Part shown: piece by piece, positions 11,065 through 50,641 of the stretch
How positions within the stretch are numbered: the stretch's first letter is position 1
Layout: each line of letters opens with the position of its first letter
NCBI RefSeq assembly: GCF_013122565.1
Contig: NZ_CP053258.1
Reading direction: 5' to 3' (one strand)
DNA: 64,000 bases
From: Escherichia coli
GTDB lineage: Bacteria > Pseudomonadota > Gammaproteobacteria > Enterobacterales > Enterobacteriaceae
Translations under genes and position numbers: made by a program
The notes under the pieces: model-generated
Databases searched by the model: none
What the model was told of the DNA's origin: nothing
Seen by the model: the letters and a program-made list of their open reading frames with translations, nothing else

Positions 11065-11073
11065 ATTCGCTGT

Positions 11074-11099
11074 TCCCGGTAGCAGAATTGCTACCGGGG
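11074..11099. terminator. Hairpin downstream of ygiQ
   Basis: tcccggtagca-gaat-tgctaccggga inverted repeat between convergent genes. Confidence 0.4.
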
Positions 11100-11134
11100 A
11101 TATTACTTCAGAATCTATCTCATTAGGCATTTAT

Positions 11135-11491: not shown

Positions 11492-11673
11492 GCTTTTTAA
11501 TTGTTATGCAGAAAAATGCCAGGAAAATGATTTAAATTGAATTTTCTGGGGTGATTTGTAATCTTGCTTGTCATATAGATGAGCCATCCAACGAGGTTGT
11601 GCAACATTTAATGAGGGAGACTGGACCAGAACAAGGCTGGGGATTAATATAGAAATGATTAACAATAGTGGCT

Positions 11674-17332: not shown

Positions 17333-17992
17333 TCAGGCGTTACAGTATTTTTTTTTAATCACCACAAACAGCGTGCCTAACAAGCCAGCGGTTAACAAGG
17401 CAATTGGCAGGATCATCAGGAACGTCATTACCTGATCTTCATGGCGTTTAACGAACGGAATCATACTTAAGGCATAGCCGAAACTGGTTACCACGCTGAC
17501 CCACAGCAATCCGCTTAACCAGTTGAAAAACTGGAAACGGCGGTTTGGCAGACCGGAAATTCCCGCCATGGTTGGCAGCAGCGTACGGACAAATGCAAGA
17601 AAACGTCCAGCCAGCAGCGCCAGCAGACCGTGGCGGTCAAACATGCAGGTGGCGCGCTGGTGATATTTAGCAGGAAGCTGTGCCAGCCAGCCTTTCACCG
17701 TTTTGGTATTCCCTAACCAGCGCCCCTGAATATAACTTAGCCAGCAGCCCAGACTTGCTGCGGCGGTCAGAATCGCAATCGTAGGCAGAAAATCCATAAC
17801 CCCCTGGGCAATCAATGCGCCTGCCAGTATCAACAAGCTGTCGCCTGGCAAAAATGAGGCGGGCAGCAGGCCGTTTTCTAAAAACAGCGTGGCAAACATG
17901 ACAAAGTAAACAACGCTAACAATATGAGGATCCGCCAGCGCGGCAAAGTCGTGTTGCCAGAGCGCAGCGATGATATCTTGAATAACAGCCAT
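17333..17992 (-). CDS. yghB: DedA-family inner membrane protein
   Basis: 219 aa; [33 protein letters not shown]. Confidence 0.92.
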
Positions 17993-34895: not shown

Positions 34896-35186
34896 TACAT
34901 GTTGTAACAACCCCGTACTGATTATGAACAATAATTAGTACGGGGATTAATCAAAATATTCAATATTTATATATTCCAATATTTATTCATTTCATATGTG
35001 AATATATTAACCAGCAGAATGCCTGTATTCTGATTATTTCTAAAGATTTTGAATGAATGCTTATTGTCTGATACACAAGAAATAACACTCTTTTTATCGT
35101 TAAAAAATGATATTTCACTTTGCCCACACCGTTAAAGTCACTGATAATGCGTCCGTTCGTAAATTCAAAATGGCGTAATCTAATAT

Positions 35187-36686
35187 ATGCTAAATTTATT
35201 TGTTGGCCTTGATATATATACGGGGCTTTTGTTATTACTTGCTCTGGCATTTGTGTTGTTCTACGAAGCAATCAATGGTTTTCATGACACGGCGAATGCG
35301 GTGGCAACCGTTATTTATACTCGTGCCATGCAGCCACAGCTTGCCGTGGTGATGGCGGCATTTTTTAACTTTTTTGGCGTGTTATTGGGCGGACTTAGCG
35401 TTGCCTATGCCATTGTCCATATGTTGCCAACCGATTTGTTGCTGAATATGGGGTCAACCCACGGTCTGGCGATGGTCTTTTCCATGCTGCTGGCGGCGAT
35501 TATCTGGAACCTGGGAACGTGGTTCTTTGGTTTACCGGCCTCCAGTTCGCACACCTTGATTGGTGCGATTATCGGCATCGGTTTAACCAACGCGCTGTTA
35601 ACCGGCTCATCGGTGATGGATGCGTTAAACCTGCGTGAAGTGACCAAGATTTTCTCCTCACTGATTGTTTCCCCTATCGTCGGTCTGGTCATTGCGGGAG
35701 GCCTGATTTTCCTGCTGCGTCGCTACTGGAGTGGGACGAAAAAGCGTGACCGTATTCACCGCATTCCGGAAGATCGCAAAAAGAAAAAAGGCAAACGTAA
35801 GCCGCCATTCTGGACGCGTATTGCGCTGATTGTTTCCGCTGCGGGCGTGGCTTTTTCGCACGGCGCGAACGACGGGCAGAAAGGGATCGGCCTGGTGATG
35901 CTGGTACTGGTGGGGATTGCTCCTGCTGGCTTCGTCGTCAATATGAATGCGTCCGGCTATGAAATTACCCGCACCCGCGATGCCATCACCAACTTTGAAC
36001 ACTATCTGCAACAGCATCCTGAACTGCCGCAGAAGTTGATTGCGATGGAGCCTTCGCTGCCCGCTGCTCCCACTGACGGCACGCAAGTGACGGAGTTTCA
36101 CTGTCATCCGGCAAATACCTTTGATGCGATTGCGCGCGTTAAAACGATGCTGCCAGGCAACATGGAAAGCTACGAGCCGTTAAGCGTGAGTCAGCGCAGC
36201 CAGCTGCGCCGCATTATGCTGTGCATCTCTGATACTTCCGCGAAGCTGGCGAAACTGCCAGGCGTCAGTAAAGAAGACCAGAACCTGCTGAAAAAACTGC
36301 GCAGCGATATGTTAAGCACCATTGAGTACGCTCCGGTGTGGATCATCATGGCGGTAGCACTGGCGCTCGGCATTGGCACCATGATTGGCTGGCGTCGTGT
36401 AGCGATGACCATCGGTGAGAAGATTGGTAAGCGTGGCATGACGTATGCGCAAGGCATGGCGGCACAAATGACGGCGGCAGTGTCTATCGGCCTTGCCAGT
36501 TATATTGGGATGCCCGTCTCCACAACACACGTACTCTCATCTGCCGTAGCAGGGACGATGGTGGTGGACGGCGGTGGGTTACAGCGTAAAACGGTAACCA
36601 GCATCCTGATGGCGTGGGTGTTTACCTTACCGGCGGCGATTTTTCTTTCTGGTGGGTTGTACTGGATAGCATTGCAGTTGATTTAA
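35187..36686 (+). CDS. pitB: Low-affinity inorganic phosphate transporter
   Basis: 499 aa; PHO4-family signature GANDGQKG. Confidence 0.92.
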
Positions 36687-36695
36687 CCTTCCTGA

Positions 36696-36730
36696 AAATG
36701 CCCGGTCCTGGCGATCGGGCATTTCCATTT
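36696..36730. terminator. Bidirectional terminator hairpin between pitB and yghT
   Basis: aaatgcccg ... cgggcattt inverted repeat followed by ccattttt. Confidence 0.5.
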
Positions 36731-36734
36731 TTGA

Positions 36735-37427
36735 CTAGTGATAACCACGCGCGGTCATAAAATCCGTAATCGCTTTTTCTGCATCAACCAGCACCTGTTC
36801 CAGTGGCTGATTGGCATCGATATCAACCAGTTGTGCACCACCAAAGGTTAACTGTGGCGTTATGGCAATCTTCCTCGCCAGCGATTCCCGTTTATGGTCG
36901 GGTTTACGCGCGCAGGCAACTTCAAGGTCAACATTGAGTTTGATGACCAGATCAGGCTTATGGCTCGCCATCCAGTGAAACGCTTTACGTTCCTGGCTTG
37001 CCAGCCATGAGACAAAACGACTACCTTCAACGTTAGGTGGGAACACCGTACCATCGTAAGCGCCAGGAATTTGGTCCTGAGGATAACGGTCGGTTAGAAC
37101 AATTAACCCGCGACGACGACAGGCAAGCATATGACGAAAGCGCAGTAAGCGACGGGCGACAAACGCTGTAATTACCAGCGCCGGAACTGGTCCTGGCAAT
37201 TTTTTTGCTGTTTTCACCTGATTTCGTTCAATTGTTTTATGTAAGGATTTTCCCATTAACGGTAATTTTGTCACTGCACGACCGACATTTCCGGCCTGTT
37301 TTCCTAAATGAACTCTTTCGGCAGCACCATATTTTTCGACAACGGTAATGAGATGTTCACACACCGTTGACTTGCCTGAACCATCGCTACCAATAACGGC
37401 AATTAATGGAGGTGTTATTGACTGCAT
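36735..37427 (-). CDS. yghT: P-loop NTPase (nucleoside/nucleotide-kinase-like fold) YghT
   Basis: 230 aa; Walker [10 protein letters not shown]. Confidence 0.85.
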
Positions 37428-37600
37428 GAATATATCCTTTAATTTAAATATTCATCCAAAATATTTATTTGGTTAATATGTTTTGATGAAAGCGTAAATC
37501 AGGTCAATGTCATAATTAACCATTGTCACAATAAGGTTGAACGGATATTCTGAGCACGGACCACGTAATATTCAATACATTATTTACTGCCGGGTTTTTC

Positions 37601-38314
37601 GTGAATCAACGTAATATGTCAATAATTAATTCCACGCCAGTGCGTGTTATTGCCATTGTAGGATGTGATGGTTCAGGTAAATCGACCCTCACGGCAAGCC
37701 TGGTAAATGAACTGGCAGCAAGAATGCCAACAGAACGCATTTATCTCGGGCAATCGTCCGGGCGAATTGGCGAATGGATTTCACAGCTCCCTGTTATTGG
37801 CGCACCTTTTGGGCGTTATCTGCGAAGTAAAGCGGCACATGTGCACGAAAAGCCCTCAACACCGCCTGGCAATATTACTGCGCTGGTTATCTATCTGCTT
37901 TCCTGCTGGCGGGCGTACAAGTTTCGCAAAATGTTGTGTAGAAGCCAGCAAGGCCATCTGCTCATCACCGACCGCTACCCGCAGGTTGAAGTGCCGGGTT
38001 TTCGCTTTGATGGCCCGCAATTGGCAAAAACCACGGGCGGTAACGGTTGGATAAAAATGTTAAGGCAGCGCGAGCTGAAGCTGTACCAATGGATGGCGTC
38101 TTATTTGCCCGTATTGTTGATTCGTCTTGGCATTGATGAACAAACCGCGTTTGCGCGTAAACCTGACCACCAACTGGCAGCGTTACAGGAAAAAATCGCC
38201 GTTACGCCGCAACTGACGTTCAACGGTGCCAGGATCCTTGAACTGGATGGTCGGCAACCAGCCGATGAAATTCTGCAAGCGTCACTACGCGCAATTCACG
38301 CCGCGCTTTCCTGA
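37601..38314 (+). CDS. yghS: P-loop NTPase YghS (paralogue of YghT/YghR)
   Basis: 237 aa; Walker A GCDGSGKST; shared ITDRYPQ motif. Confidence 0.85.
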   Translation: MNQRNMSIINSTPVRVIAIVGCDGSGKSTLTASLVNELAARMPTERIYLGQSSGRIGEWISQLPVIGAPFGRYLRSKAAHVHEKPSTPPGNITALVIYLLSCWRAYKFRKMLCRSQQGHLLITDRYPQVEVPGFRFDGPQLAKTTGGNGWIKMLRQRELKLYQWMASYLPVLLIRLGIDEQTAFARKPDHQLAALQEKIAVTPQLTFNGARILELDGRQPADEILQASLRAIHAALS

Positions 38315-38345
38315 TCACCAAAATGGATAGGGGATGATTTAACGA

Positions 38346-39104
38346 ATGGATGCACTACAAACACAAACTGTTAATAGTACAACCGCGCCGCAGCCCAACT
38401 ACATTCCGGGGCTGATTGCGGTGGTCGGGTGTGATGGCACCGGTAAATCCACACTGACCACTGACCTGGTGAAATCGCTGCAACAACACTGGCAAACTGA
38501 GCGGCGCTATCTGGGGCTGCTCTCGGGCGAAGACGGCGACAAAATCAAACGATTGCCGTTGGTTGGTGTCTGGCTCGAACGGCGACTGGCGGCCAAATCC
38601 TCGAAAACCCAAAGCATGAAAACCAAATCTCCAGCGCTATGGGCGGCGGTGATTATGTACTGCTTTTCGCTGCGAAGAATGGCGAATCTACGCAAGGTTC
38701 AGCGACTGGCGCAAAGTGGCGTTCTGGTGGTCAGCGATCGCTTCCCGCAGGCTGAAATTTCGGGCTTTTATTATGACGGACCGGGGATCGGCGTCGAACG
38801 TGCGACCGGGAAAATCAGCATGTTTCTGGCGCAGCGCGAACGGCGTTTATACCAAAAAATGGCGCAATACCGTCCTGAATTAATCATTCGTTTGGGGATT
38901 GATATTGATACTGCCATCTCCCGCAAGCCTGACCATGACTATGCCGAGCTGCAGGACAAAATCGGCGTCATGTCGACGATTGGCTATAACGGCACAAAAA
39001 TTCTTGAGATTGATTCCAGAGCGCCCTACAGCGAAGTGCTGGAACAGGCACAGAAGGCGGTTTCTCTGGTTGCCATCGTTTCTGACCGCCGAAGTTTAAC
39101 TTAA
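38346..39104 (+). CDS. yghR: P-loop NTPase YghR (paralogue of YghS/YghT)
   Basis: 252 aa; Walker A GCDGTGKST; VSDRFPQ motif. Confidence 0.85.
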   Translation: MDALQTQTVNSTTAPQPNYIPGLIAVVGCDGTGKSTLTTDLVKSLQQHWQTERRYLGLLSGEDGDKIKRLPLVGVWLERRLAAKSSKTQSMKTKSPALWAAVIMYCFSLRRMANLRKVQRLAQSGVLVVSDRFPQAEISGFYYDGPGIGVERATGKISMFLAQRERRLYQKMAQYRPELIIRLGIDIDTAISRKPDHDYAELQDKIGVMSTIGYNGTKILEIDSRAPYSEVLEQAQKAVSLVAIVSDRRSLT

Positions 39105-39149
39105 GGCTGGCGGGATACTTTTTACTATCAACGATAAGGTCAGGCTGAA

Positions 39150-40499
39150 TTGGCGGGTTTTAACATCAAACATTGGTTTGCAGATGGCGCGTTTCGCACC
39201 ATTATTCGCAATAGCGCCTGGTTAGGCTCCAGTAATGTCGTGAGCGCCTTGCTGGGTCTGTTGGCGCTCTCGTGTGCCGGTAAAGGGATGACGCCCGCCA
39301 TGTTTGGCGTACTGGTGATTGTGCAATCGTACGCCAAGTCGATCAGCGATTTTATTAAGTTTCAGACATGGCAACTGGTGGTTCAGTACGGAACACCAGC
39401 ATTAACCAACAATAATCCGCAGCAATTCCGCAATGTCGTCTCATTTTCCTTCTCGCTGGATATCGTCAGCGGCGCGGTGGCGATTGTCGGCGGCATTGCC
39501 TTACTGCCATTCCTTTCCCATTCATTAGGTCTGGATGACCAAAGTTTTTGGCTGGCAGCGCTCTATTGCACGCTCATTCCTTCAATGGCTTCCTCCACGC
39601 CGACCGGCATTCTGCGTGCGGTAGATCGCTTCGATCTAATTGCTGTACAGCAAGCGACGAAACCTTTTCTGCGCGCAGCGGGGAGCGTCGTAGCCTGGTA
39701 TTTTGACTTTGGTTTTGCGGGTTTTGTTATCGCCTGGTACGCATCGAATCTGGTTGGCGGCACCATGTACTGGTGGTTTGCCGCGCGCGAATTACGTCGC
39801 AGAAATATCCATAACGCCTTCAAATTGAATCTGTTTGAGTCTGCCCGACACATTAAAGGCGCGTGGAGTTTTGTCTGGTCAACCAACATTGCCCACTCCA
39901 TCTGGTCGGCGCGTAACTCGTGCAGCACAGTGCTGGTGGGGATCGTGTTAGGACCCGCTGCCGCCGGGTTATTTAAAATCGCCATGACATTCTTCGATGC
40001 CGCCGGAACGCCAGCGGGTTTGCTGGGTAAAAGTTTTTACCCAGAGGTGATGCGTTTAGATCCGCGCACCACCAGACCGTGGTTGTTAGGTGTGAAGTCC
40101 GGTTTACTGGCGGGCGGAATTGGTATTCTGGTGGCACTCGCGGTGTTGATCGTCGGCAAGCCGCTCATTTCACTGGTGTTTGGTGTGAAGTATCTCGAAG
40201 CGTATGACCTGATTCAGGTGATGCTGGGCGCAATTGTGATTTCGATGCTGGGCTTCCCGCAGGAGTCATTGCTATTGATGGCGGGAAAACAGCGCGCTTT
40301 TCTCGTGGCGCAAACCATCGCCTCAATCGGCTACATCGTATTGCTGTTCATGTTCTGTCATCTGTTTGGCGTGCTGGGAGCAGCGTTTGCTTACTTCGGT
40401 GGGCAATGTCTGGATGTGGTGCTCTCGCTAATTCCAACCTTAAAGGCATTTTTTCAGCGCCATTCCTTGCTTTATAACGCAGCCGGAGAGAAATCCTGA
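39150..40499 (+). CDS. yghQ: Polytopic inner membrane protein, MOP/Wzx-like flippase superfamily (YghQ); start uncertain
   Basis: Long hydrophobic ORF; the track start at 39150 is TTG; first in-frame ATG near 39288; stop overlaps the start of the next gene. Confidence 0.7.
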   Translation: MAGFNIKHWFADGAFRTIIRNSAWLGSSNVVSALLGLLALSCAGKGMTPAMFGVLVIVQSYAKSISDFIKFQTWQLVVQYGTPALTNNNPQQFRNVVSFSFSLDIVSGAVAIVGGIALLPFLSHSLGLDDQSFWLAALYCTLIPSMASSTPTGILRAVDRFDLIAVQQATKPFLRAAGSVVAWYFDFGFAGFVIAWYASNLVGGTMYWWFAARELRRRNIHNAFKLNLFESARHIKGAWSFVWSTNIAHSIWSARNSCSTVLVGIVLGPAAAGLFKIAMTFFDAAGTPAGLLGKSFYPEVMRLDPRTTRPWLLGVKSGLLAGGIGILVALAVLIVGKPLISLVFGVKYLEAYDLIQVMLGAIVISMLGFPQESLLLMAGKQRAFLVAQTIASIGYIVLLFMFCHLFGVLGAAFAYFGGQCLDVVLSLIPTLKAFFQRHSLLYNAAGEKS

Positions 40500-41323
40500 T
40501 GATGAGAAAATATTTCCCGCTTGAGGCGAGCGAGCGTCTATTTGTTGCGATTGAAGAAGATGATGTCGTTGATGCACAGGTCAGTTTGCCGCCGACTATC
40601 GCACTAAGTTGTACCACCGAAATCATCCATGATAATTACGCGTTATGCCTGCAATTCTGGCTCAATGGCGTCAATCGCCAGGAGTTACTGCGTTTAATAT
40701 GCAAACAGGCCAAAGGCGATGAGCTGACTGCTGATGAGCGCAAACAATTTAAATACATGCGAGCGCGCTACAAGCACCTGCGTTTTGCGCAACGGCTGTA
40801 TTTAAAAAAGCATCAGGCCGGATTTTTATTCGGCAAAACGACCGTTTTTCTGGGACGTTTTCAGGACGGATTTCGTAACGGTAAGAAAAATATTGTGTCG
40901 TATTACGGCAACCTGTTACGAATTTATTTAAGCTCTCCGGTCTGGTCGTTGGTGAACTATTCATTACGCCATAGCCAGTTAGAAAGCGTAAGCGGTTTTA
41001 TTGCCTATCGGCAACAGCAAATGCATACCCTGAAAGAGATTATTGCCAAACCGCGACTAACCGGCAGGGAATTTCATGATGTGCGAAAAATCATCAGCCA
41101 GCAGGTTTCTTATTACGACACCTTAAGATCGCTTGATCCTGAAAATAAAGAGGCGTTACAGATTTCCCGCTTCCTCGCCGCCATTAATGGCCTGATGGGG
41201 GATAAACACGACGACATGGTGGCGGATGATATGGAAAACCGCCAGTCGTATGATGCACCGGTGGCGCTGGATAGCGATATTCGTCAGCGCTTAGAGCTGC
41301 TGATTTCGCGTTTTCCGCTATAA
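40499..41323 (+). CDS. Hypothetical protein (no recognisable domain), translationally coupled to yghQ
   Basis: 274 aa; ATG overlaps the yghQ TGA (ATGA-type junction). Confidence 0.55.
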   Translation: MMRKYFPLEASERLFVAIEEDDVVDAQVSLPPTIALSCTTEIIHDNYALCLQFWLNGVNRQELLRLICKQAKGDELTADERKQFKYMRARYKHLRFAQRLYLKKHQAGFLFGKTTVFLGRFQDGFRNGKKNIVSYYGNLLRIYLSSPVWSLVNYSLRHSQLESVSGFIAYRQQQMHTLKEIIAKPRLTGREFHDVRKIISQQVSYYDTLRSLDPENKEALQISRFLAAINGLMGDKHDDMVADDMENRQSYDAPVALDSDIRQRLELLISRFPL

Positions 41324-41331
41324 CCGGAGCA

Positions 41332-41895
41332 ATGATGTCATCTCGTTTGATTATTGCGCTGATTATCATGCTCTTAGCCCCGGGTGTGCAGGCACACAAT
41401 TTCGTCACTGGCAAAACGGTTACCCCCGTTTATATCCAGGAAGGCGGCGAGCTGCTTCTGAATAGCGACGACGAAATTCACTACCAAAAGTGGAACAGCA
41501 CACAATTGGCGGGAAAAGTTCGCATTATTCAGTATATCGCCGGGCGTAAGTCGGCGAAGAAAAAGAACTCACTGTTAATTAAAGCGGTTGAAGCGGCAAA
41601 CTTTCCGCAGGATCGTTTTCAGCCCACAACCATCGTGAACACCGATGATGCCATCTTTGGTACCGGCTATTTTGTCGTTGGCAAAATCGAAAAAAATAAA
41701 CGCCGCTATCCGTGGGCGCAATTCGTTATTGACGGCAATGGACTGGGACGCATTGCCTGGCGCTTGCCGGAGCAGAGTTCAACCATTCTGGTGCTGAATA
41801 AAGCCGGGCAAATTCAGTGGGCAAAGGACGGCAGCCTGACGCCGGAAGAGGTAGATCATGTCATTGCGTTGGCGCAGAAACTGATCAATGAATAA
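41332..41895 (+). CDS. Periplasmic protein, YtfJ-like family (tentative)
   Basis: 187 aa; signal peptide LIIALIIMLLAPGVQA; size and composition resemble the YtfJ family. Confidence 0.5.
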   Translation: MMSSRLIIALIIMLLAPGVQAHNFVTGKTVTPVYIQEGGELLLNSDDEIHYQKWNSTQLAGKVRIIQYIAGRKSAKKKNSLLIKAVEAANFPQDRFQPTTIVNTDDAIFGTGYFVVGKIEKNKRRYPWAQFVIDGNGLGRIAWRLPEQSSTILVLNKAGQIQWAKDGSLTPEEVDHVIALAQKLINE

Positions 41896-41925
41896 AAAAC
41901 TCAAAGGATTGAGGGCGTTAGTGAG

Positions 41926-42996
41926 ATGAAGCTGGTTGAACACTACATCATGCGTGGTACGCGCCGTTTGGTGCTGATTATCGTCGGTTTTCTGATCTTT
42001 ATTTTCGCCAGCTACTCCGCACAGCGTTATCTGACCGAAGCGGCAAATGGGACATTAGCACTTGATGTTGTGCTGGATATCGTTTTTTACAAGGTGCTGA
42101 TTGCACTGGAGATGTTGTTACCTGTTGGACTGTATGTGTCAGTTGGCGTGACGCTAGGGCAGATGTATACCGACTCGGAAATCACAGCTATCTCTGCGGC
42201 GGGGGGCAGTCCGGGACGCTTGTACAAAGCCGTTCTTTATCTGGCGATACCGCTAAGTATTTTTGTCACCCTTCTGTCGATGTATGGTCGTCCGTGGGCT
42301 TATGCGCAGATTTATCAACTGGAGCAGCAGTCGCAGTCGGAGCTGGATGTTCGCCAGTTGCGGGCAAAGAAATTTAACACTAACGATAACGGACGAATGA
42401 TCCTTTCGCAGACGGTTGATCAGGATAATAATCGCCTGACTGACGCGCTGATTTATACTTCTACTGCCAATCGAACCCGCATTTTCCGCGCCCGTTCGGT
42501 TGATGTGGTTGACCCATCTCCCGAGAAACCGACCGTTATGTTGCACAACGGCACCGCCTATCTTCTCGATCATCAGGGGCGTGACGACAACGAACAGATC
42601 TACCGTAATCTGCAATTACATCTGAATCCGCTGGATCAAAGCCCTAATGTCAAACGCAAAGCGAAATCGGTCACGGAGCTGGCGCGCTCCGTCTTTCCAG
42701 CCGATCATGCCGAACTGCAATGGCGACAAAGCCGTGGCCTGACCGCATTGTTGATGGCGCTGCTGGCCATTTCATTAAGTCGGGTAAAACCGCGGCAGGG
42801 GCGATTTTCAACGTTATTGCCACTGACGTTGCTGTTTATTGCCATTTTTTATGGCGGCGACGTCTGCCGTACGCTGGTGGCTAACGGCGCGATTCCTCTC
42901 ATTCCTGGTTTGTGGTTAGTACCCGGACTCATGCTAATGGGCCTGCTGATGCTGGTTGCACGCGACTTCACTTTGCTGCAGAAATTTTCCCGATGA
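41926..42996 (+). CDS. LptF/LptG-family (YjgP/YjgQ) permease, LptF-like
   Basis: 356 aa; LGQMYTDSEIT and KPRQGRFSTLLP resemble LptF LGKLYTESEIT / NPRQGRVLSMLP; TM-periplasmic domain-TM architecture. Confidence 0.7.
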   Translation: MKLVEHYIMRGTRRLVLIIVGFLIFIFASYSAQRYLTEAANGTLALDVVLDIVFYKVLIALEMLLPVGLYVSVGVTLGQMYTDSEITAISAAGGSPGRLYKAVLYLAIPLSIFVTLLSMYGRPWAYAQIYQLEQQSQSELDVRQLRAKKFNTNDNGRMILSQTVDQDNNRLTDALIYTSTANRTRIFRARSVDVVDPSPEKPTVMLHNGTAYLLDHQGRDDNEQIYRNLQLHLNPLDQSPNVKRKAKSVTELARSVFPADHAELQWRQSRGLTALLMALLAISLSRVKPRQGRFSTLLPLTLLFIAIFYGGDVCRTLVANGAIPLIPGLWLVPGLMLMGLLMLVARDFTLLQKFSR

Positions 42997-44072
42997 ATGT
43001 TTTCAGTCGCTATTTAATCCGTCATCTCTTTCTCGGTTTTGCCGCCGCCGCAGGGCTATTGCTGCCGCTTTTTACCACCTTCAACCTGATTAACGAACTG
43101 GATGATGTCAGCCCGGGCGGTTATCGCTGGACTCAGGCGGTGCTGGTGGTGCTGATGACCTTACCGCGTACACTGGTCGAACTTTCGCCGTTTATCGCAT
43201 TATTGGGAGGGATTGTTGGCCTGGGGCAGTTATCGAAAAACAGTGAGCTTACCGCCATTCGCAGCACTGGGTTTTCTATCTTCCGTATTGCACTGGTGGC
43301 GCTGGTTGCCGGGATATTGTGGACTGTTTCGTTAGGCGCGATAGATGAGTGGGTGGCGTCGCCGTTGCAGCAACAGGCGCTGCAAATCAAATCGACCGCC
43401 ACCGCGTTGGGGGAGGACGATGACATTACCGGCAATATGCTGTGGGCCAGGCGCGGCAATGAATTTGTGACGGTGAAATCGCTGAACGAGCAGGGCCAGC
43501 CGGTGGGCGTGGAGATATTTCATTATCGCGACGATCTCTCGCTCGAATCCTACATTTATGCACGCAGTGCCACCATTAAAGACGACAAAATGTGGAGCCT
43601 GCATGGTGTGAATCATAAAAAATGGCTTAACGGTAAAGAAACGCTGGAAACATCAGATAATCTTGCCTGGCAATCGGCCTTCACCAGTATGGATCTTGAA
43701 GAGCTATCGATGCCGGGGAATACTTTTTCTGTCCGTCAGCTTAATCATTACATCCATTATTTGCAGGAAACCGGGCAACCCAGCAGCGAATACCGCCTTG
43801 CACTGTGGGAAAAACTGGGGCAACCCATCCTGACCCTGGCGATGATTTTGCTGGCTGTGCCGTTTACCTTTAGCGCCCCGCGCTCGCCAGGGATGGGTAG
43901 CCGTCTCGCTGTAGGCGTCATCGTTGGCTTACTCACCTGGATCAGCTATCAAATCATGGTCAATCTGGGGTTGCTATTTGCGTTGAGCGCACCTGTTACC
44001 GCGCTCGGTTTACCGGTAGCGTTTGTACTGGTGGCGTTGAGCCTGGTGTATTGGTATGACAGACAACATTAA
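42993..44072 (+). CDS. LptF/LptG-family permease, LptG-like
   Basis: 359 aa from ATG overlapping the upstream stop; NHYIHYLQETGQ...RSPGMGSRL resembles LptG NYVKYLKSSGQ...RSVPMGVRV. Confidence 0.7.
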   Translation: MNVFSRYLIRHLFLGFAAAAGLLLPLFTTFNLINELDDVSPGGYRWTQAVLVVLMTLPRTLVELSPFIALLGGIVGLGQLSKNSELTAIRSTGFSIFRIALVALVAGILWTVSLGAIDEWVASPLQQQALQIKSTATALGEDDDITGNMLWARRGNEFVTVKSLNEQGQPVGVEIFHYRDDLSLESYIYARSATIKDDKMWSLHGVNHKKWLNGKETLETSDNLAWQSAFTSMDLEELSMPGNTFSVRQLNHYIHYLQETGQPSSEYRLALWEKLGQPILTLAMILLAVPFTFSAPRSPGMGSRLAVGVIVGLLTWISYQIMVNLGLLFALSAPVTALGLPVAFVLVALSLVYWYDRQH

Positions 44073-44106
44073 ACCCGCCGTGGCGCAACACCACGGCGGG
44101 CTCACA

Positions 44107-45195
44107 TTACTGCTTCAGAGTAGCAAATGCCTGAATGATGGTATCGATTTGCTCACGACTGTGGGCAGCGTTTACGCTACAGCGCAGCAGCGTGATGCCT
44201 GCAGGCGCGGCAGGTGGCAGGATAAGATTCACATAAACGCCCAGCGAAATAAGCTCGCGCCAGATGCGTAAACCTTCCTCTTTCGAACCGATTATTACCG
44301 GCACTACCGGACTAATATGTGAACTTAACTCATAACCCAGTTTTTGCAGACCGTCATACAGATGGTTGGCGTTATCCATCAGTTTTTGCCGCAGCTCTGG
44401 TTGTGTGGCAATGGTTCTTAACGACGAGCGCACGGTCGCAATGCAGGACGGAGAAGGAGAGGCGGTAAAAATATACGGGCGGCTGCCGTAGCGCAGCACT
44501 TCCATCGCTTCCGAACCGACAGCAAAACCGCCAATCGAGGCCAGACTTTTACTGAAGGTACCAACGATAATATCCACATCATCTTCAACGCCAACGGCTT
44601 CAGCCAGTCCGCGCCCCGTTGCGCCTAACACGCCAAACGAATGCGCTTCATCGACAATCAAATAACCACCGAGACGACGTTTGATATCAACAATTTCCGC
44701 TAACGGCGCAACGTCACCGAGCATGCTGTAGATACCCTCAACGATGATAATCGCCTCTTTCGCCCGTTCACCGAGGCGAACCATGCGCCGTTCCAGATCT
44801 TTAGCATCGTTATGGCGGAAACGAATAATTTCCGCGCCACCGAGAGAACAGGCGTCATAAATACTGGCGTGGCTGTCGGCATCCAGTAACACCACGGCGT
44901 TATGGTCGGCAAGTGCGCTGATGACGCCTAAATTAGCGGTATAACCGGTTGAAAAAACGATAGCGGTAGGGCGATTGAAAAACTCGGCAATCTCTTTCTC
45001 TAACGCCAGGTGCGGCGCATAACTGCCGTTTGCCATACGAGAACCGGTGGTGCCGGTGCCTTGGGCCGCTAACGCTGCCTGACCTTCGGTGGCGGAATAC
45101 ACTTCATCAATACAGGTGCCAAACGGTGTTAACCCGTTGTCACTAAATTGCAGTCGCTCGCCAGCAAGGCGCGCATATTTATCGTATAGCCCCAT
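44107..45195 (-). CDS. PLP-dependent alpha-oxoamine synthase (BioF/Kbl/serine palmitoyltransferase family)
   Basis: 362 aa; DEAHSFGVLGATGRG and GTFSKSLASIGGF (PLP-lysine motif). Confidence 0.75.
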   Translation of the reverse strand: MGLYDKYARLAGERLQFSDNGLTPFGTCIDEVYSATEGQAALAAQGTGTTGSRMANGSYAPHLALEKEIAEFFNRPTAIVFSTGYTANLGVISALADHNAVVLLDADSHASIYDACSLGGAEIIRFRHNDAKDLERRMVRLGERAKEAIIIVEGIYSMLGDVAPLAEIVDIKRRLGGYLIVDEAHSFGVLGATGRGLAEAVGVEDDVDIIVGTFSKSLASIGGFAVGSEAMEVLRYGSRPYIFTASPSPSCIATVRSSLRTIATQPELRQKLMDNANHLYDGLQKLGYELSSHISPVVPVIIGSKEEGLRIWRELISLGVYVNLILPPAAPAGITLLRCSVNAAHSREQIDTIIQAFATLKQ

Positions 45196-45443
45196 TATTT
45201 ATTCTCCAGCCATGGAAGTAGAGTTTCCATTAATTGCGCAGGGGTTTTGACATCCAGCAGAATATTAATAGGAATGGAAATATCGAATCTGTCTTCCAGC
45301 ATCATTAAGAGATCCATCACTTTGATCGACTCCAGGCCAAGATCGTTGACGAGATCGCTGTCGGGCTTAATTTCCACACCGTTTTCGACCAAATCCTGTA
45401 AACAGGAAAGGATGTAATCCATTACTATTTCACGATTTACCAT
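45195..45443 (-). CDS. Acyl carrier protein
   Basis: 82 aa; phosphopantetheine attachment-like motif DLGLESIK; stop overlaps the downstream start. Confidence 0.7.
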   Translation of the reverse strand: MVNREIVMDYILSCLQDLVENGVEIKPDSDLVNDLGLESIKVMDLLMMLEDRFDISIPINILLDVKTPAQLMETLLPWLENK

Positions 45444-45474
45444 AGAAACGTTAACACACCTTTAAACAAGACAA

Positions 45475-46389
45475 TCAAAATAGCCCGTTGCGTAATGCGT
45501 GTTCCAGGCTAATCCCGGGAAACCAATTAATATCTTCAGAAATACGGTTATTATTTGCCGACCAGTCGGCGTGGGTTAATTCACGAATTTTCGAGCGGGT
45601 CAGCATAGGTTCTTTACCTGCCAGGCGACTCAACGCAGTACTGATATCCGCAAGGCAGGTGAGTACCGGCAGAGGAATGCCAACCATCCGCACAGAACCA
45701 CAACGGGCTTCGGCGGCAAGCTGTCGTACGCGTTGCCAGTCATAGCCGCCAGCGACGCCATCGCATAATTCATAGGTTTGCGTCTGTACAGTTTCGGCGC
45801 TTAACCACTGACCCACGGCTTGCGCGAAATCGGTGACGTGCAGGAAAGAGAGCTGTGTATCTGGCGCACCAAGTCGTGGCAGCAGGCCGCGCAGCATCCA
45901 GTCAAACAGCGGTTTTAACTCTTTATCGCCTGGACCATACACGGCTGTCGGGCGAAAAACGCCCAGCGTAATTTCATCAGCCATTGCAGTCAGCCGTTGT
46001 TCGGCGACGTGTTTGGAATTTGCGTACCAGGAGAGTTCGGGATGGCGCGCCGCCAGCGAAGAGATAAACAGAAAACGTTGGCAAAAGCCGCTCTCTTTTG
46101 CCGCTTGCATCAGGCGCAGGCTGCCGTCAACGTTACAGTGGGTAAAAATCTCTTCTTTGTGTCCGCGCACTTGCCCGGCGCAATGGACCACCGCGCTGGC
46201 TCCGGCAACCAGTTCGCTAAGTGAATGAGTATCTTCCAGCGAACCGCGCACCCAGGTGAGATTGTCATTGACGTGAGCGCGGGCAGTACGCGTCAATGCG
46301 CGAACGTGAAAGCCGCGGGCGAGCAGGTTATCGATAATATATTTACCGATAAACCCGGTAGCGCCCGTCACCGCGACAGTTTGATTCAT
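45475..46389 (-). CDS. NAD(P)-dependent epimerase/dehydratase-family reductase
   Basis: ~304 aa from Met MNQTVAVTGATGFIGKYI (Rossmann GxTGxxG); ATG overlaps the stop of the upstream ligase gene; the ORF track extends to 46599. Confidence 0.7.
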   Translation of the reverse strand: MNQTVAVTGATGFIGKYIIDNLLARGFHVRALTRTARAHVNDNLTWVRGSLEDTHSLSELVAGASAVVHCAGQVRGHKEEIFTHCNVDGSLRLMQAAKESGFCQRFLFISSLAARHPELSWYANSKHVAEQRLTAMADEITLGVFRPTAVYGPGDKELKPLFDWMLRGLLPRLGAPDTQLSFLHVTDFAQAVGQWLSAETVQTQTYELCDGVAGGYDWQRVRQLAAEARCGSVRMVGIPLPVLTCLADISTALSRLAGKEPMLTRSKIRELTHADWSANNNRISEDINWFPGISLEHALRNGLF

Positions 46390-48107
46390 GCCAGGGATTC
46401 CTGCACATGAAGACTGGCAGCATAAGCCTTCTGATAACGTTTTTTCGCTTCCGCACGGGCAGGCTTGCCGGAGGACGTTCGGGGAATACTGTGGGGCGGC
46501 AACAGATCGATAGCCGCGGTCACGCCAAATTCGCTTTGGATCCGTGCCGCCAGCGCGTGGATAAGCTGCCCGCGACGTTCTTCGTCGCTGATCCGACACT
46601 GGATCTGCAAAATGATTTTTTCCTGGGCGGTAACAAAAGCAATCGCATCGCCAGAATGAATTTCCGGTTCCTGTTCCGCAATATATTCAATATCCTGCGG
46701 CCAGATATTACGGCCACGAATAATAATCAGATCTTTAATGCGTCCGGTGACATACAGATAACCGTCCAGCAGATAACCGAGGTCGCCGGTGTCTAACCAG
46801 CCCGTCGCGGCAATCTCGTCTTGCGAAGCCTGGTCGCCAAAGTAACCGCTCATCAGGCTAGGGCCGGAGATGCAAATATGGCCTACCACACGTTCCGCGA
46901 CAGGTATACCTGCTTCATTGCGGATTTCAATGCCATGTTCCGGCAACGCTTTGCCGCAGTTGACGAAAGTCGATACGGCGCGTGTCTCTGCACCCGGCGC
47001 GACGGCTTTACCCTGATATTCGAGGATGTCGCGATCCACTTCGTTAACCACAACCCCGGAGGCTTCATCAGAGAAGCTGACAGCCAGCGCATTTTCTGCC
47101 AGTCCGTAGCACGGCATGAAAGTTTTATTGTCAAAGTTAACCTGACGGAAACATTCAGCGAATTGATGGAGTTGTTCTGCGGAGATGGGTTCTGCACCAA
47201 TACCAGCGACGCGCCAGGAGGAAAGATCCAGTTCAGCGAGATCTTTTTCATTCACGCGGCGCTGGCACAATTCATAGCCAAACGGCGGCGCAACGGAAAC
47301 GGTGCCGCGATTTTTACTGATCAATTTAAGCCATTGCAGAGGACGCATGGCAAAATCCTGAGTGCGCAAATAATCTACTGAAAGCTGCGTGGCGACAGGG
47401 GTCAGGAGAAAGCCGACCAGTCCCATATCATGGTAGAAAGGCAGCCAGGAGACGCAGCGGTCGCCAGGGCGTAATTTAATGCCATCGTGGCTTATAGCAC
47501 GTAGATTAGCCATCACTTCGCGATGGGTGATAATGACGCCACGGGGAAAACGGGTGCTGCCGGAGGTGTACTGGAGGTAGGCGATATCGTTCGGAACTGG
47601 ACGCTGGAGCGCAACATCGGCTTCCGGTAATGCCTTAAACCAGGCGTGGCTTAAAACATGTAATTCGGGATTGTTATGCGTCGCGGCATTGACCAGTGGC
47701 AACCACTCATCACCAGTGATAATGGCTGCGGGCTGGCAACTTGCCAGTAAACCCTGCAGTTTGGCGCTCCAGGAATCCCGCTGACCGACGCCCATTGGAA
47801 TCGCCAACGGGACGGCGACTAAGCCGGCATACTGGCAGGCAAAAAAAGCCTCTACGAACCCGCTACTGGTTTCGGCAATCAGCGCCACGCGATCGCCTTT
47901 TTTCAGGTTCAGCGATAACAACCGCTTCGCACCAGCTTCGGCACGCGCTTTTAACGTCTGATATTCCAGTTGATCTTCAAGTTGGCAACGTCTGTCATAA
48001 AAATTCATTCCAGCGCTACTCAGAGCGGCGTAGTCCAAAGCATCAACCAGCGTTGGAAAATCGGCATAGCGCATAGGTAGGGAATGCGTAAAGATTTTAT
48101 TAGACAT
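46386..48107 (-). CDS. Fatty acyl-AMP ligase / acyl-ACP synthetase (adenylate-forming superfamily)
   Basis: ~573 aa from Met MSNKIFTHSL; AMP-binding motifs YTSGSTRFPRGV, GYGLAE; C-terminal SSGKPAR. Confidence 0.75.
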   Translation of the reverse strand: MSNKIFTHSLPMRYADFPTLVDALDYAALSSAGMNFYDRRCQLEDQLEYQTLKARAEAGAKRLLSLNLKKGDRVALIAETSSGFVEAFFACQYAGLVAVPLAIPMGVGQRDSWSAKLQGLLASCQPAAIITGDEWLPLVNAATHNNPELHVLSHAWFKALPEADVALQRPVPNDIAYLQYTSGSTRFPRGVIITHREVMANLRAISHDGIKLRPGDRCVSWLPFYHDMGLVGFLLTPVATQLSVDYLRTQDFAMRPLQWLKLISKNRGTVSVAPPFGYELCQRRVNEKDLAELDLSSWRVAGIGAEPISAEQLHQFAECFRQVNFDNKTFMPCYGLAENALAVSFSDEASGVVVNEVDRDILEYQGKAVAPGAETRAVSTFVNCGKALPEHGIEIRNEAGIPVAERVVGHICISGPSLMSGYFGDQASQDEIAATGWLDTGDLGYLLDGYLYVTGRIKDLIIIRGRNIWPQDIEYIAEQEPEIHSGDAIAFVTAQEKIILQIQCRISDEERRGQLIHALAARIQSEFGVTAAIDLLPPHSIPRTSSGKPARAEAKKRYQKAYAASLHVQESLA

Positions 48108-48477
48108 ATACACCACGAAAAAATTGGATATCAAAAATAAAATGACAATAATGCGGTGGATTATATAGGCATAAAAGATAAATGAGATAGTATTTTCATC
48201 AGTGTGAAAATGAACATTGATTTAAATAATAGGTTTGGTTTTGTTGTTTTTATTGTGAATGATATTTAATTTATGAATATATTAAGAAGAAGCCTTGTCC
48301 GGTCGCCTTAAATCGACAAAAGGCATTGTGGCGCTTCTGTGTAGTCTCTGACCTTATCTTAATCATTAATAAATACTATTTATTCTTTATTTGTATTCAT
48401 TGGGTTGATTATTAAGATGCCGTTCGTTGCTGTTGTAACCTGTTTGTCACCGTTAATTATTTGTTATCCACAGAGAT
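48108..48477. promoter_or_regulatory. AT-rich divergent intergenic control region between the ligase operon and yghO
   Basis: 370 bp of strongly AT-rich sequence with A/T tracts between divergent gene starts. Confidence 0.5.
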
Positions 48478-49620
48478 ATGGAATGCGATCTGCTGATGAT
48501 TAAAATTGAAAAAGTAATTAATAAAAATGACCTTAAGGCATTTATCGCTTTTCCGTCATCACTTTATCCCGACGATCCAAACTGGATACCCCCTTTATTC
48601 ATTGAACGCAACGAGCATTTGTCTGCGAAAAATCCGGGGACGGACCATATCATCTGGCAGGCGTGGGTGGCAAAAAAAGCGGGGCAGATAGTTGGGCGTA
48701 TTACCGCGCAAATAGATACCTTGCACCGCGAGCGTTACGGCAAAGATACCGGTCATTTCGGCATGATTGACGCCATTGATGATCCGCAGGTTTTTGCCGC
48801 GTTGTTTGGCGCAGCGGAAGCGTGGTTGAAGTCACAAGGTGCAAGTAAGATCAGCGGTCCTTTCAGCCTGAATATCAATCAGGAAAGCGGATTACTGATT
48901 GAAGGTTTCGATACACCACCCTGTGCGATGATGCCGCACGGTAAACCGTGGTATGCCGCGCATATTGAACAATTGGGTTATCACAAAGGCATTGATTTAC
49001 TGGCGTGGTGGATGCAGCGAACCGATCTCACTTTCTCTCCGGCGCTAAAAAAACTGATGGATCAGGTGCGCAAAAAGGTGACCATTCGCTGCATCAATCG
49101 CCAGCGGTTTGCCGAAGAGATGCAGATCCTGCGTGAGATTTTCAACTCTGGCTGGCAGCACAACTGGGGATTTGTGCCGTTTACCGAACATGAATTCGCG
49201 ACCATGGGCGACCAACTTAAATATCTGGTGCCGGACGATATGATCTACATCGCTGAGATTGATTCTGCACCCTGCGCGTTTATTGTCGGCTTGCCGAACA
49301 TCAACGAGGCGATTGCCGATCTGAACGGATCGCTCTTTCCCTTCGGCTGGGCAAAATTGCTGTGGCGTTTGAAAGTCAGCGGTGTGCGAACTGCGCGAGT
49401 ACCGCTGATGGGCGTGCGCGACGAGTATCAGTTCAGCCGCATCGGCCCGGTAATTGCGCTGTTATTGATTGAAGCCTTACGCGATCCGTTTGCCCGCCGG
49501 AAGATCGATGCGCTGGAGATGTCATGGATCCTCGAAACCAATACAGGCATGAATAACATGCTGGAACGCATTGGGGCGGAGCCGTACAAGCGTTACCGAT
49601 TGTATGAAAAGCAGATTTAA
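48478..49620 (+). CDS. yghO: YghO, acyl-CoA N-acyltransferase-like protein (intact)
   Basis: 380 aa uninterrupted ORF; position next to glcC; alternative start at MIKIEK (48496). Confidence 0.7.
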   Translation: MECDLLMIKIEKVINKNDLKAFIAFPSSLYPDDPNWIPPLFIERNEHLSAKNPGTDHIIWQAWVAKKAGQIVGRITAQIDTLHRERYGKDTGHFGMIDAIDDPQVFAALFGAAEAWLKSQGASKISGPFSLNINQESGLLIEGFDTPPCAMMPHGKPWYAAHIEQLGYHKGIDLLAWWMQRTDLTFSPALKKLMDQVRKKVTIRCINRQRFAEEMQILREIFNSGWQHNWGFVPFTEHEFATMGDQLKYLVPDDMIYIAEIDSAPCAFIVGLPNINEAIADLNGSLFPFGWAKLLWRLKVSGVRTARVPLMGVRDEYQFSRIGPVIALLLIEALRDPFARRKIDALEMSWILETNTGMNNMLERIGAEPYKRYRLYEKQI

Positions 49621-49626
49621 TACCAG

Positions 49627-50391
49627 CTAACTCAGGTTCATCTCCAGCGGCACCGCCGAGCGAATCAAATGGTGGCCTTCCAGCTCGATATCGTGGAGAT
49701 TCTTTTTCACGGTCCGCACATGATCGCGTGCTGCGCGCTGGGCGACGTGCGGCAGCCGCTGCAACACCGCGTTGTAGATCCGCGCATGCTGGCGATCGAT
49801 CTGCTTTTTTTGCTGTGGTCGATGGTAGAGATTATTTACGCTGGCAAACACTGAATTAAACATCAGATCGGTCAATGATTGTAGCGTAAACACCAGCACC
49901 TGATTGTGAGAAGCCTGACAAATGGCGAGATGGAAAGCGTGATCCAACTGAGCATGTTCGATCAGCGAAATCTCTTTGTTGTTCTCACTGGCGGCGAGCA
50001 TTTTTTCATAACAGCGGGTTATCACAACAAAATCAGCCTGGGTTCCCAGCGTTGCCGCAAGCCTTGCCGATTCGCCCTCCAGCAATGCGCGAACGTCGAG
50101 CAGATCGTACAGCGTTCGCGGCTGCGTGCTGAACAGATGAATTAGCGGGCTGGTGTCCTGCACCCGATTAAGCCGTGCGACACGAGAATCGCGACCCTGC
50201 GCTGTTTCAATAATCCCGCGCCCGCGCAGCACGGTCAGTCCTTCACGCAGTGCGGAGCGTGAGAAGCCGAGCTTTTCACACAGTCGACGTTCCGAGGGAA
50301 GCGGCTGACCGACCTTCAGTACGCCGTCGATAATTAACCGTTCGATACTCTCTGCAACCACTTCGCAAATAGGGCGACGTTCATCTTTCAT
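49627..50391 (-). CDS. glcC: GntR-family transcriptional activator of the glc operon
   Basis: 254 aa from Met MKDERRPICEVVAESIERLIIDGVLKVGQPLPSER. Confidence 0.92.
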   Translation of the reverse strand: MKDERRPICEVVAESIERLIIDGVLKVGQPLPSERRLCEKLGFSRSALREGLTVLRGRGIIETAQGRDSRVARLNRVQDTSPLIHLFSTQPRTLYDLLDVRALLEGESARLAATLGTQADFVVITRCYEKMLAASENNKEISLIEHAQLDHAFHLAICQASHNQVLVFTLQSLTDLMFNSVFASVNNLYHRPQQKKQIDRQHARIYNAVLQRLPHVAQRAARDHVRTVKKNLHDIELEGHHLIRSAVPLEMNLS

Positions 50392-50641
50392 TCCCGGACC
50401 TCGTACACAGGTAGGACCAATTTTTCTGTTCTTAACTCGCAAAACACGCACATCACGTAAGTGAATATGTTACATCGATTTAACATTAAGTTAACCAAGA
50501 CAAGGTCACAGAGCTGGAAAAAAAATGGTCTGACCGGTAGCTAAAGAGATAGACGAAAACGAAAAGTCCGCTTAATAACTGTTCACAGAAGCAGCGCGCA
50601 AAAATCAGCTGCCACACAACACAACAAAGCGAAGCCTACTC

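Follow-up and report, generated by a model that had tools for sequence, protein, structure and literature searches.

A probable sphingolipid synthesis and export locus of Escherichia coli and its IS5-associated loss in strain K-12

Why have yghQ, yghR, yghS and yghT of Escherichia coli stayed uncharacterised, such that a literature search found no report assigning a function to any of them? The window analysed here, a stretch of 64,000 nucleotides of E. coli DNA (contig NZ_CP053258.1), carries these genes as part of the yghT–yghO locus, a set of 13 genes at 36735–49620 that is flanked by pitB and glcC. A first-pass annotation of this region had described it as an intact, lipid-related unit that is degraded in K-12. 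Our analysis makes it highly probable that the region is the Escherichia locus for synthesis and export of a sphingolipid (ceramide): ancestral, selectively kept, repeatedly lost, missing 8.3 kb in K-12 in association with IS5, and probably blocked in the present genome at serine palmitoyltransferase (Spt). The term "lipid-related" was correct, but the sphingolipid/ceramide identity and its prior publication had gone unrecognised. That the locus serves sphingolipid synthesis and export is already in print (PMC9386255; bioRxiv 10.64898/2026.04.12.717747), which leaves little novelty in its identity; of continuing interest are its prevalence, the private lesion in spt and a conserved module of kinases, a CHAD-like protein and a flippase.

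The locus begins with yghT on the minus strand, followed by a seven-gene plus-strand operon, yghS-yghR-yghQ-orf274-ytfJ-like-lptF2-lptG2 (37601–44072). This converges with a minus-strand operon, aasR-cerR-acpR-spt (48074 down to 44107), beyond which a 403-bp AT-rich gap precedes yghO on the plus strand (Table 1). Gene junctions within the operons are tight or overlapping. Spt of the window scores 535 bits, and the intact allele 600 bits, against the serine palmitoyltransferase equivalog model NF047599 (cut-off 500); intact E. coli Spt also matches the Sphingomonas paucimobilis enzyme 2jg2 with an E-value of 2.9e-111. The stop codon of acpR overlaps the start of spt, and the E. albertii ortholog of AcpR matches PF00550. 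AasR, encoded in the same operon as spt, scores 868 bits against the fatty acyl-AMP ligase model NF006624 (cut-off 600), and CerR matches short-chain dehydrogenase/reductase (SDR) and epimerase families of NCBIfam, its ortholog matching PF01370. Spt, a dedicated acyl carrier protein, AasR and CerR, all members of the proteobacterial ceramide gene set, are recognisable from sequence. YghO homologs are clustered with spt in 40 of 62 loci, which were found by an alignment search for orf274 homologs in 100,044 species-representative genomes.

The same genes of E. coli BL21(DE3), ECD_02850–ECD_02854, were studied by Padilla-Gomez et al. in 2022 (PMC9386255). According to that work, AcpR (ECD_02853) carries 4'-phosphopantetheine, AasR (ECD_02851) acylates AcpR, and Spt (ECD_02854) prefers acyl-AcpR; ECD_02852 (epi) is listed there as the reductase ortholog and yghO/ECD_02850 (aca) as the N-acyltransferase ortholog. 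In the pathway encoded by the locus, AasR loads a fatty acid onto its dedicated carrier AcpR and Spt condenses acyl-AcpR with serine to 3-oxosphinganine, both steps having been demonstrated with the E. coli enzymes in published work. If the Caulobacter orthologs are a guide, YghO would then N-acylate and CerR would reduce, giving dihydroceramide.

Downstream of orf274, the locus encodes an overlapping pair of permeases (lptF2-lptG2, 41926–44072), of which LptF2 scores 318 bits against TIGR04407 (cut-off 230) and LptG2 308 bits against TIGR04408 (cut-off 240). The housekeeping lptFG genes are essential and map elsewhere, and because K-12 is viable without the present pair, lptF2 and lptG2 are presumably second copies. 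An ABC ATPase (LptB) was not found among the open reading frames (ORFs) of the 36.7–49.6 kb interval. The Prokaryotic Genome Annotation Pipeline (PGAP) calls the pair "LPS export ABC transporter permease LptF/LptG" (LPS, lipopolysaccharide), a name that is likely misleading. In Caulobacter, LptF2 and LptG2 are required for sphingolipid transport; deletion of their genes is lethal unless spt or cpgB is deleted as well, and the two proteins co-purify and both bind housekeeping LptB (Uchendu, Isom and Klein; bioRxiv 10.64898/2026.04.12.717747). Figure 2B of that report draws the corresponding locus of E. coli UTI89. By analogy, LptF2 and LptG2 of E. coli, presumably powered by housekeeping LptB, would take the lipid out of the inner membrane so that it can be delivered to the outer one. 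The adjoining ytfJ-like gene, which co-occurs with lptF2-lptG2 in Enterobacterales loci, encodes a protein with an N-terminal hydrophobic, signal-like sequence that matches TIGR01626 at 2.3e-63 (213 bits, cut-off 151) and for which no solved relative was found.

How far the remaining genes belong to the same system can be judged from their distribution beyond Escherichia. We searched the 62 loci with the 13 proteins by tblastn, within 10 kb of each orf274 homolog; several of the loci are cut by contig ends. The yghQ homolog lies directly upstream of orf274 in 55 of the 62 loci; 54 contain at least two kinases, 45 contain spt and 32 have all 13 genes. In Enterobacterales, the modules yghT/yghS-yghR, yghQ-orf274-ytfJ, lptF2-lptG2 and spt-acpR-cerR-aasR/yghO occur in varying orders and orientations (genera Pseudocitrobacter, Hafnia, Citrobacter, Shimwellia, Pluralibacter, Serratia, Pantoea, Erwinia, Sodalis, Rosenbergiella, Mangrovibacter, Cedecea and Rahnella). 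Among Xanthomonadales, the loci of Luteibacter, Rhodanobacter and Dyella bring together the kinases, the spt operon and yghQ-orf274, in most cases with yghO as well. That clustering persists despite the shuffled order of the modules points to a functional link and not to an inherited gene order. The kinases, flippase and orf274 also occur in Sphingomonadales, an order of known sphingolipid producers; in Sphingopyxis they are flanked by efflux components, an extracytoplasmic function (ECF) sigma factor and a TonB receptor, which are uninformative.

Several other arrangements of orf274 were seen in the same survey. Luteibacter genomes carry two tandem orf274 homologs downstream of the yghQ homolog (10001–11757 of one Luteibacter stretch). 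Pluralibacter gergoviae and a Pluralibacter metagenome-assembled genome possess, beside the full-locus copy, a second, unlinked orf274 paralog (56–60% identity) that sits among unrelated genes for a BCCT transporter, LysR regulators and arsB. A record titled Martelella alba BGMRC 2031, an alphaproteobacterium, contains an Enterobacterales-type locus with 61–79% protein identity to E. coli and a Serratia-like gene order; this assembly is likely misassigned or contaminated.

The products of yghT, yghS and yghR, suspected early on to be paralogous P-loop NTPases, are indeed 36–46% identical and have the invariant motifs GxDGxGK[ST], DR[YF]PQ and RKPDH in common, and each of the three paralog groups retains its P-loop, DR[YF]PQ and RKPDH. 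YghS has the thymidylate-kinase fold, with 2plr as the second-best structural match; the kinase profile matches 2plr with an E-value of 0.021, weaker than its match to canonical thymidylate kinases (4e-7). YghT and YghS match the NCBIfam dTMP-kinase model only weakly, at 22–31 bits against a cut-off of 83, and the automatic name "dTMP kinase" that they bear is likely misleading. In a neighbour-joining tree, the T type forms an ancient, monophyletic clade that extends from Sphingomonadales to Enterobacterales. Distinct S and R types occur in Gammaproteobacteria and Sphingopyxis, and most other Sphingomonadales have a single undifferentiated S/R group, so the minimal module has two kinase types. 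Homology of the three kinases to CpgB, the ceramide kinase of Caulobacter, was considered and rejected: CpgB, which has a GGDG motif, belongs to the diacylglycerol-kinase/LCB5 type, whereas YghS has the thymidylate-kinase fold. The flippase-like character proposed for YghQ was recovered with Pfam Polysacc_synt (2.7e-8), Polysacc_synt_3 (1.3e-7) and the NCBIfam MOP flippase model (1.4e-8).

At the level of fold, the orf274 product is CHAD-like, with an architecture of two four-helix bundles. Among 27 sequences ranging down to 34% identity, K85, R88, K92, R95, H105, H193, R196, K197, R224 and H237 are invariant, and R81, H93 and R264 nearly so. At E ≤ 0.001, Pfam yields no family for any of the 27 sequences, CHAD not being even among the weak matches; NCBIfam gave no match, and a profile search against PDB sequences returned nothing. 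CHAD domains are polyphosphate-binding modules (bioRxiv 10.1101/567040; PMC6537752), and a literature search found no paper containing both "CHAD domain" and "sphingolipid". Hofmann et al. (2026, PMC12995831) showed that the heteromeric polyphosphate kinase PPK3 of Sulfolobus acidocaldarius is made up of two thymidylate-kinase paralogs, and its operon (saci_2017–2021) includes ppx, sixA and a gene for a CHAD protein alongside the kinases. S. tokodaii STK_15430 (PDB 5h70) is a homolog of the PPK3 catalytic subunit (PMC12995831), and the 5h70 sequence is identical to 2plr.

Conserved clustering would place YghT/S/R, YghQ, the orf274 product and the periplasmic YtfJ paralog in the same system as the ceramide genes. 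The combination of kinase paralogs with a CHAD-like partner, and no glycosyltransferase, suggests a phosphate-based head-group chemistry; these proteins would most likely alter the head group through phosphotransfer and flip the resulting lipid. A more specific scheme, which we regard as unlikely but worth stating, can be built by analogy: YghT/S/R and the orf274 product would act as a PPK3-like heteromeric phosphotransferase that, by using or building chains of phosphoanhydride bonds, adds an oligo- or polyphosphate head group to ceramide, YghQ would flip the product, and LptB-LptF2G2 would export it. If true, it would mean an undescribed class of highly anionic outer-membrane sphingolipid in Enterobacterales, Xanthomonadales and many Sphingomonadales, and functions for four long-orphan E. 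coli y-genes.

The resemblance to PPK3 also permits a quite different account, namely that the locus consists of two unrelated neighbouring units, one for ceramide synthesis and export and one a PPK3-like polyphosphate unit (YghT/S/R, the CHAD-like protein and YghQ) with no part in sphingolipid metabolism. Pairing of two thymidylate-kinase paralogs with a CHAD protein in Sulfolobus (PMC12995831), the CHAD-like fold of the orf274 product and the separation of the module from spt in Sphingomonadales all speak for such a division. We consider it distinctly improbable, nevertheless, given that the module lies no more than 10 kb from spt in 45 of the 62 loci, across two bacterial orders and in shuffled arrangement, and that the taxa bearing it are known or predicted sphingolipid producers. 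The module, moreover, includes a membrane flippase (55 of 62 loci) that soluble polyphosphate metabolism would not need; ppx and sixA are not present; and none of the three kinases has lost its catalytic motifs, in contrast to the inactive regulatory subunit of PPK3.

What happened to this locus in K-12 can be read from its junctions. The MG1655 annotation lists yghT, yghS, yghR, a truncated yghQ, IS5, an N-terminally altered yghO and glcC, just as the first-pass annotation had stated. MG1655 covers 48% of a megablast query spanning window positions 34900–51000; by BLAST, K-12 matches 34900–40218 and 48518–51000, and the 8.3 kb between (40218–48517) are absent, so that K-12 does not have the same gene content here. 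The gap is occupied by a 1195-bp IS5 with inverted repeats, its ends reading GGAAGGTGCGAA(T/C)AAG. On the left, IS5 abuts ...GACCTGATTTAG, where intact strains read ...ATTCAGG; of the 449 codons of full-length yghQ, 355 or 356 are retained, the gene breaking off after codon 355 (breakpoint 40217/40218). On the right, IS5 abuts TTAATAAAAATG, 40 nt into yghO, the first 40 nt of which are lost. A search for target-site remnants found the flanks TTAG and TTAA, with no matching target-site duplication, which indicates an IS-associated deletion rather than a simple insertion. A complete insertion sequence (IS) with inverted repeats, two truncated genes joined by it and flanks that do not match, as found here, are the features of such an event and support the IS5-mediated deletion proposed at the outset. 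K-12 has accordingly lost the last part of yghQ, the beginning of yghO and everything between them, 8.3 kb in all, and retains yghT, yghS, yghR and a yghQ stump without their pathway. This supports the view that the loss in K-12 explains why yghQRST are uncharacterised. The K-12 yghO is given in RefSeq as an intact 378-aa CDS, the first codons of which lie inside the IS5 end (9480–9513 of the K-12 stretch); this is a fusion start and not the native N-terminus.

The K-12 condition is the exception among E. coli strains. When the same 16-kb query was compared with 5426 complete E. coli genomes, and a genome was counted as a carrier if at least 80% of the query was covered, 4043 genomes (~75%) had the locus, with annotated products that include "spt: serine palmitoyltransferase". 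The K-12 yghQ-IS5 junction is present in only 347 of the 5426. At least four independent IS- or island-associated losses, K-12 included, have occurred in E. coli: in strain E100341, an IS1 lies between yghS and yghO; in ATCC 8739, an IS1 event removed pitB through aasR; and in strain 319, IS elements and an island with effector genes replace everything after a truncated pitB. The highest identity of the query to any of the complete genomes is only 98.2% over 16 kb; the lineage of the source strain seems to be poorly represented in this set, or the region unusually diverse.

The window itself does not hold a fully intact copy, contrary to what was first thought. Every gene except spt has the same length as in the reference strain LHM10-1, in comparison with which spt of the window lacks 84 bp, in frame, between two copies of the 9-bp direct repeat GACCTTCGG. 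The deletion removes 28 Spt residues, 37–64 (EGRIGNKKVILAGTNNYLGLTFNHDAIA), including the conserved active-site motif GTNNYLGL; about positions 37–65 of the NF047599 profile are missing. The deleted part corresponds to residues 59–86 of the Sphingomonas enzyme (2jg2), including G71-T-Y73-N74-Y-M-G-M. Alpha-oxoamine synthases share this conserved (S/T)NxYLG motif, which supplies residues of the active site. A 43-nt probe across the deletion junction found no match in the 5426 complete genomes, and the exact 362-aa Spt is recorded on a single 4.82-Mb E. coli contig only (QJU27012.1/WP_171460368.1). The lesion is either private to the source strain or an assembly error. Should it be genuine, the pathway of the source genome is probably blocked at its first committed step, and this spt allele should not be assumed to be active.

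In E. albertii, all 13 genes occupy the same site, in the order hyb-yghU-gss-pitB-[locus]-glcC-glcD, and the full locus is also found between pitB and glcC in E. whittamii and two cryptic-clade Escherichia. Comparison of the window with E. albertii by the Nei-Gojobori method gave ratios of nonsynonymous to synonymous divergence (dN/dS) of 0.019–0.110 for the 13 genes, with 0.022 for the flanking pitB and 0.042 for glcC. Synonymous divergence (dS) is about 0.6–1.4, comparable to that of the flanks, the exception being the 82-codon acpR with a dS of 0.17. The shared site in E. albertii, E. whittamii and the cryptic clades, together with the low dN/dS, indicates that the locus has long been part of the genus and is subject to purifying selection. 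Signs of recent foreign acquisition were looked for in mobility genes, G+C content, flanks and dS and were not found: the ORFs of the window include no mobility gene within the locus, and the G+C content (0.44–0.55) is ordinary and similar to that of the flanks. Ancestral presence rather than acquisition, as originally suggested, is borne out by these results and by the distribution among E. coli and other Escherichia genomes.

Several observations weigh against a working sphingolipid locus. Its repeated loss among E. coli lineages shows that it is dispensable. BL21 with empty vectors made no detectable 3-oxosphinganine (PMC9386255), so that the locus may be silent under laboratory conditions and is probably unexpressed in rich medium, and a literature search found no native sphingolipid of wild-type E. 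coli. YghO gave no detectable Pfam, NCBIfam or PDB-sequence match, and its assignment comes from PMC9386255 and its neighbourhood. The Sphingomonadales cluster of two kinases, flippase and orf274 stands alone and is not adjacent to spt. Finally, the roles of YghT/S/R, YghQ, the orf274 product and the YtfJ paralog are inferred from gene neighbourhood and fold only.

Some of these points would fit a decaying relic, unexpressed and nonfunctional in E. coli and heading for loss in all lineages. The four or more independent IS- or island-associated losses, the private spt deletion, the lack of a native product in the searched literature and an AT-rich control region that could be silenced would all agree with decay. 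It is hard to reconcile with dN/dS values of 0.02–0.11 in each gene over the synonymous divergence from E. albertii given above (even with acpR at 0.17), and with retention of the whole locus in three quarters of complete E. coli genomes. Such low dN/dS speaks for use of the genes in some natural setting, and we hold the relic explanation to be improbable.

The automatic product names ("lipopolysaccharide biosynthesis protein", "LptF", "LptG", "dTMP kinase") would make the cluster a polysaccharide- or LPS-type pathway, and the scores of LptF2 and LptG2 above the curated cut-offs agree with such names. This is very improbable: the locus contains no glycosyltransferase, sugar-nucleotide or polymerase gene, its core is the experimentally verified Spt/AcpR/AasR set (PMC9386255), K-12 makes LPS though it lacks this Lpt pair, and the dTMP-kinase matches fall far below their cut-off. 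That the extra 8 kb are a recent foreign island in non-K-12 strains, K-12 being ancestral, is scarcely credible even though the locus is patchy among Enterobacterales genera and about a quarter of complete E. coli genomes are without an intact copy, because IS5 of K-12 is bordered by truncated copies of yghQ and yghO, both of which are full length elsewhere, the site is identical in E. albertii, E. whittamii and the cryptic clades, mobility genes are lacking, G+C is as in the flanks, and synonymous divergence from E. albertii is similar to that of pitB.

Textbook E. coli membrane lipid biology derives from K-12, which lost the locus. In about three quarters of the complete E. coli genomes, B strains and uropathogens among them, selection has preserved what is very probably a ceramide pathway equipped with an Lpt-type exporter of its own. 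Here lies a concrete reason why yghQ, yghR, yghS and yghT show no phenotype in K-12; they should be studied in strains with an intact locus, and the automatic names in the locus are best regarded as misleading.

The gene content and coordinates of the first-pass annotation, including the 274-aa ORF, the YtfJ-like gene, the LptFG-like pair, the synthase, the acyl carrier protein, the reductase and the ligase, were confirmed by the ORF listing and family searches (Table 1). The ORF listing likewise confirmed the full-length yghO and found no transposase ORF or IS element in the pitB–glcC interval.

Table 1. Features of the yghT–yghO locus, in window coordinates
Feature	Coordinates	Strand	Description
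yghT	36735..37427	-	230-aa ORF; monocistronic, divergent from yghS; T-type thymidylate-kinase-fold P-loop kinase paralog
yghS	37601..38314	+	thymidylate-kinase-fold kinase paralog; opens the seven-gene operon
yghR	38346..39104	+	third thymidylate-kinase-fold kinase paralog
yghQ	39150..40499	+	MOP-superfamily (Wzx-like) flippase candidate
orf274 ("Ybl138")	40499..41323	+	274 aa; all-helical, CHAD-like; start overlaps yghQ stop by 1 nt
ytfJ-like	41332..41895	+	second YtfJ-family gene; product predicted periplasmic
lptF2	41926..42996	+	LptF-family permease paralog (TIGR04407)
lptG2	42993..44072	+	LptG-family permease paralog (TIGR04408)
Hairpin	44070..44104		terminator-like, 16-bp stem, between convergent lptG2 and spt; consensus scan only
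spt	44107..45195	-	serine palmitoyltransferase (NF047599); allele of 362 aa vs 390
Deletion junction in spt	45081..45089		84-bp deletion; sole remaining copy of 9-bp repeat GACCTTCGG
acpR	45195..45443	-	specialised acyl carrier protein; 82-aa ORF directly upstream of spt
cerR/epi	45475..46389	-	NAD-dependent epimerase/dehydratase-family reductase; NCBIfam SDR/epimerase matches
aasR	46386..48074	-	acyl-AcpR synthetase, fatty acyl-AMP ligase family (NF006624)
aasR-yghO divergent region	48075..48477		AT-rich, ~40% G+C; putative control region
yghO	48478..49620	+	380-aa ORF; candidate ceramide synthase (acyl-CoA N-acyltransferase "aca"/bCerS ortholog)
Segment absent from K-12	40218..48517		8.3 kb; IS5 in its place

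The locus is bounded by pitB (35187–36686) and by glcC on the minus strand (from 49627 onward). The scan for promoters and terminators gave counts equal to the shuffled expectation, and only two long gene-end hairpins stand out: these are G+C-rich, with 16 pairs at 44070–44104 (lptG2/spt) and 12 pairs at 36696–36724 (pitB/yghT), and are plausible bidirectional terminators. An Rfam scan of the 34–52 kb interval found no RNA family. The aasR–yghO region may have a regulatory role, and its AT-richness would fit silencing. A low-intensity FlhDC site was found by in vitro genomic SELEX (systematic evolution of ligands by exponential enrichment) in the K-12 yghS/yghT intergenic region (PMC9962212), the counterpart of which lies here at 37428–37600. 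In the yghO–glcC gap (49621–49636), LHM10-1 has about 76 extra bases (17811–17897 of its stretch) that neither the window nor K-12 contains; the difference may be a polymorphism of a small repetitive extragenic element. In Escherichia, Pseudocitrobacter, Hafnia paralvei and two Citrobacter species, yghT adjoins pitB, which encodes a low-affinity phosphate transporter; this could be a coincidence or reflect a link to phosphate chemistry.

Among known systems, the E. coli B/BL21(DE3) genes (PMC9386255) represent the same locus, with aasR, epi/cerR, acpR, spt and yghO in the same order. That study presents it as a feature of E. coli B and the enterotoxigenic strain B7A, whereas we find it in ~75% of complete genomes; it is silent on yghT/S/R/Q, orf274, the YtfJ paralog, the K-12 IS5 deletion and prevalence. 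The Spt allele of the window lacks 28 residues. The LptB2FGC extractor of LPS is similar in that LptF2 and LptG2 exceed the curated LptF and LptG cut-offs; in contrast to that system, LptF2/G2 are dispensable, as K-12 lacks the pair, are embedded in a sphingolipid locus, and have a sphingolipid, not LPS, as their presumed cargo. The orf274 product differs from CHAD domains in having no Pfam CHAD match and in its context of lipid genes rather than TTM, PPK or PPX. The PPK3 operon shares with the locus adjacent thymidylate-kinase-fold paralogs encoded with a CHAD or, at the fold level, CHAD-like protein, and the number of kinase types in most Sphingomonadales modules, exactly two, equals that of the PPK3 subunits. 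Unlike that operon, the locus has neither ppx nor sixA; all of its paralogs keep the P-loop and DRx motifs, whereas the regulatory subunit of PPK3 is degenerate and inactive; its module is coupled to a MOP flippase and sphingolipid genes; and its kinases resemble the S. tokodaii homolog in sequence no more closely than they do ordinary thymidylate kinases.

Another close counterpart is the Caulobacter crescentus locus CC_1152–CC_1168/ccna_01210–01226 (PMC11324152; bioRxiv 10.64898/2026.04.12.717747), which resembles that of E. coli in its five ceramide genes (with yghO as the candidate counterpart of CC_1154, the bCerS/aca N-acyltransferase), its second LptF/LptG pair, the presence of a candidate flippase and the lack of an LptB copy. 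Caulobacter makes ceramide (di)phosphoglycerate via CpgA–D, none of which is encoded within the E. coli-type locus. The latter has instead three thymidylate-kinase-fold kinases, a CHAD-like protein and a YtfJ paralog, with no LptC2, and its pairing of kinases and a CHAD-like protein with a flippase suggests a head-group chemistry unlike the phosphoglycerate pathway of Caulobacter.

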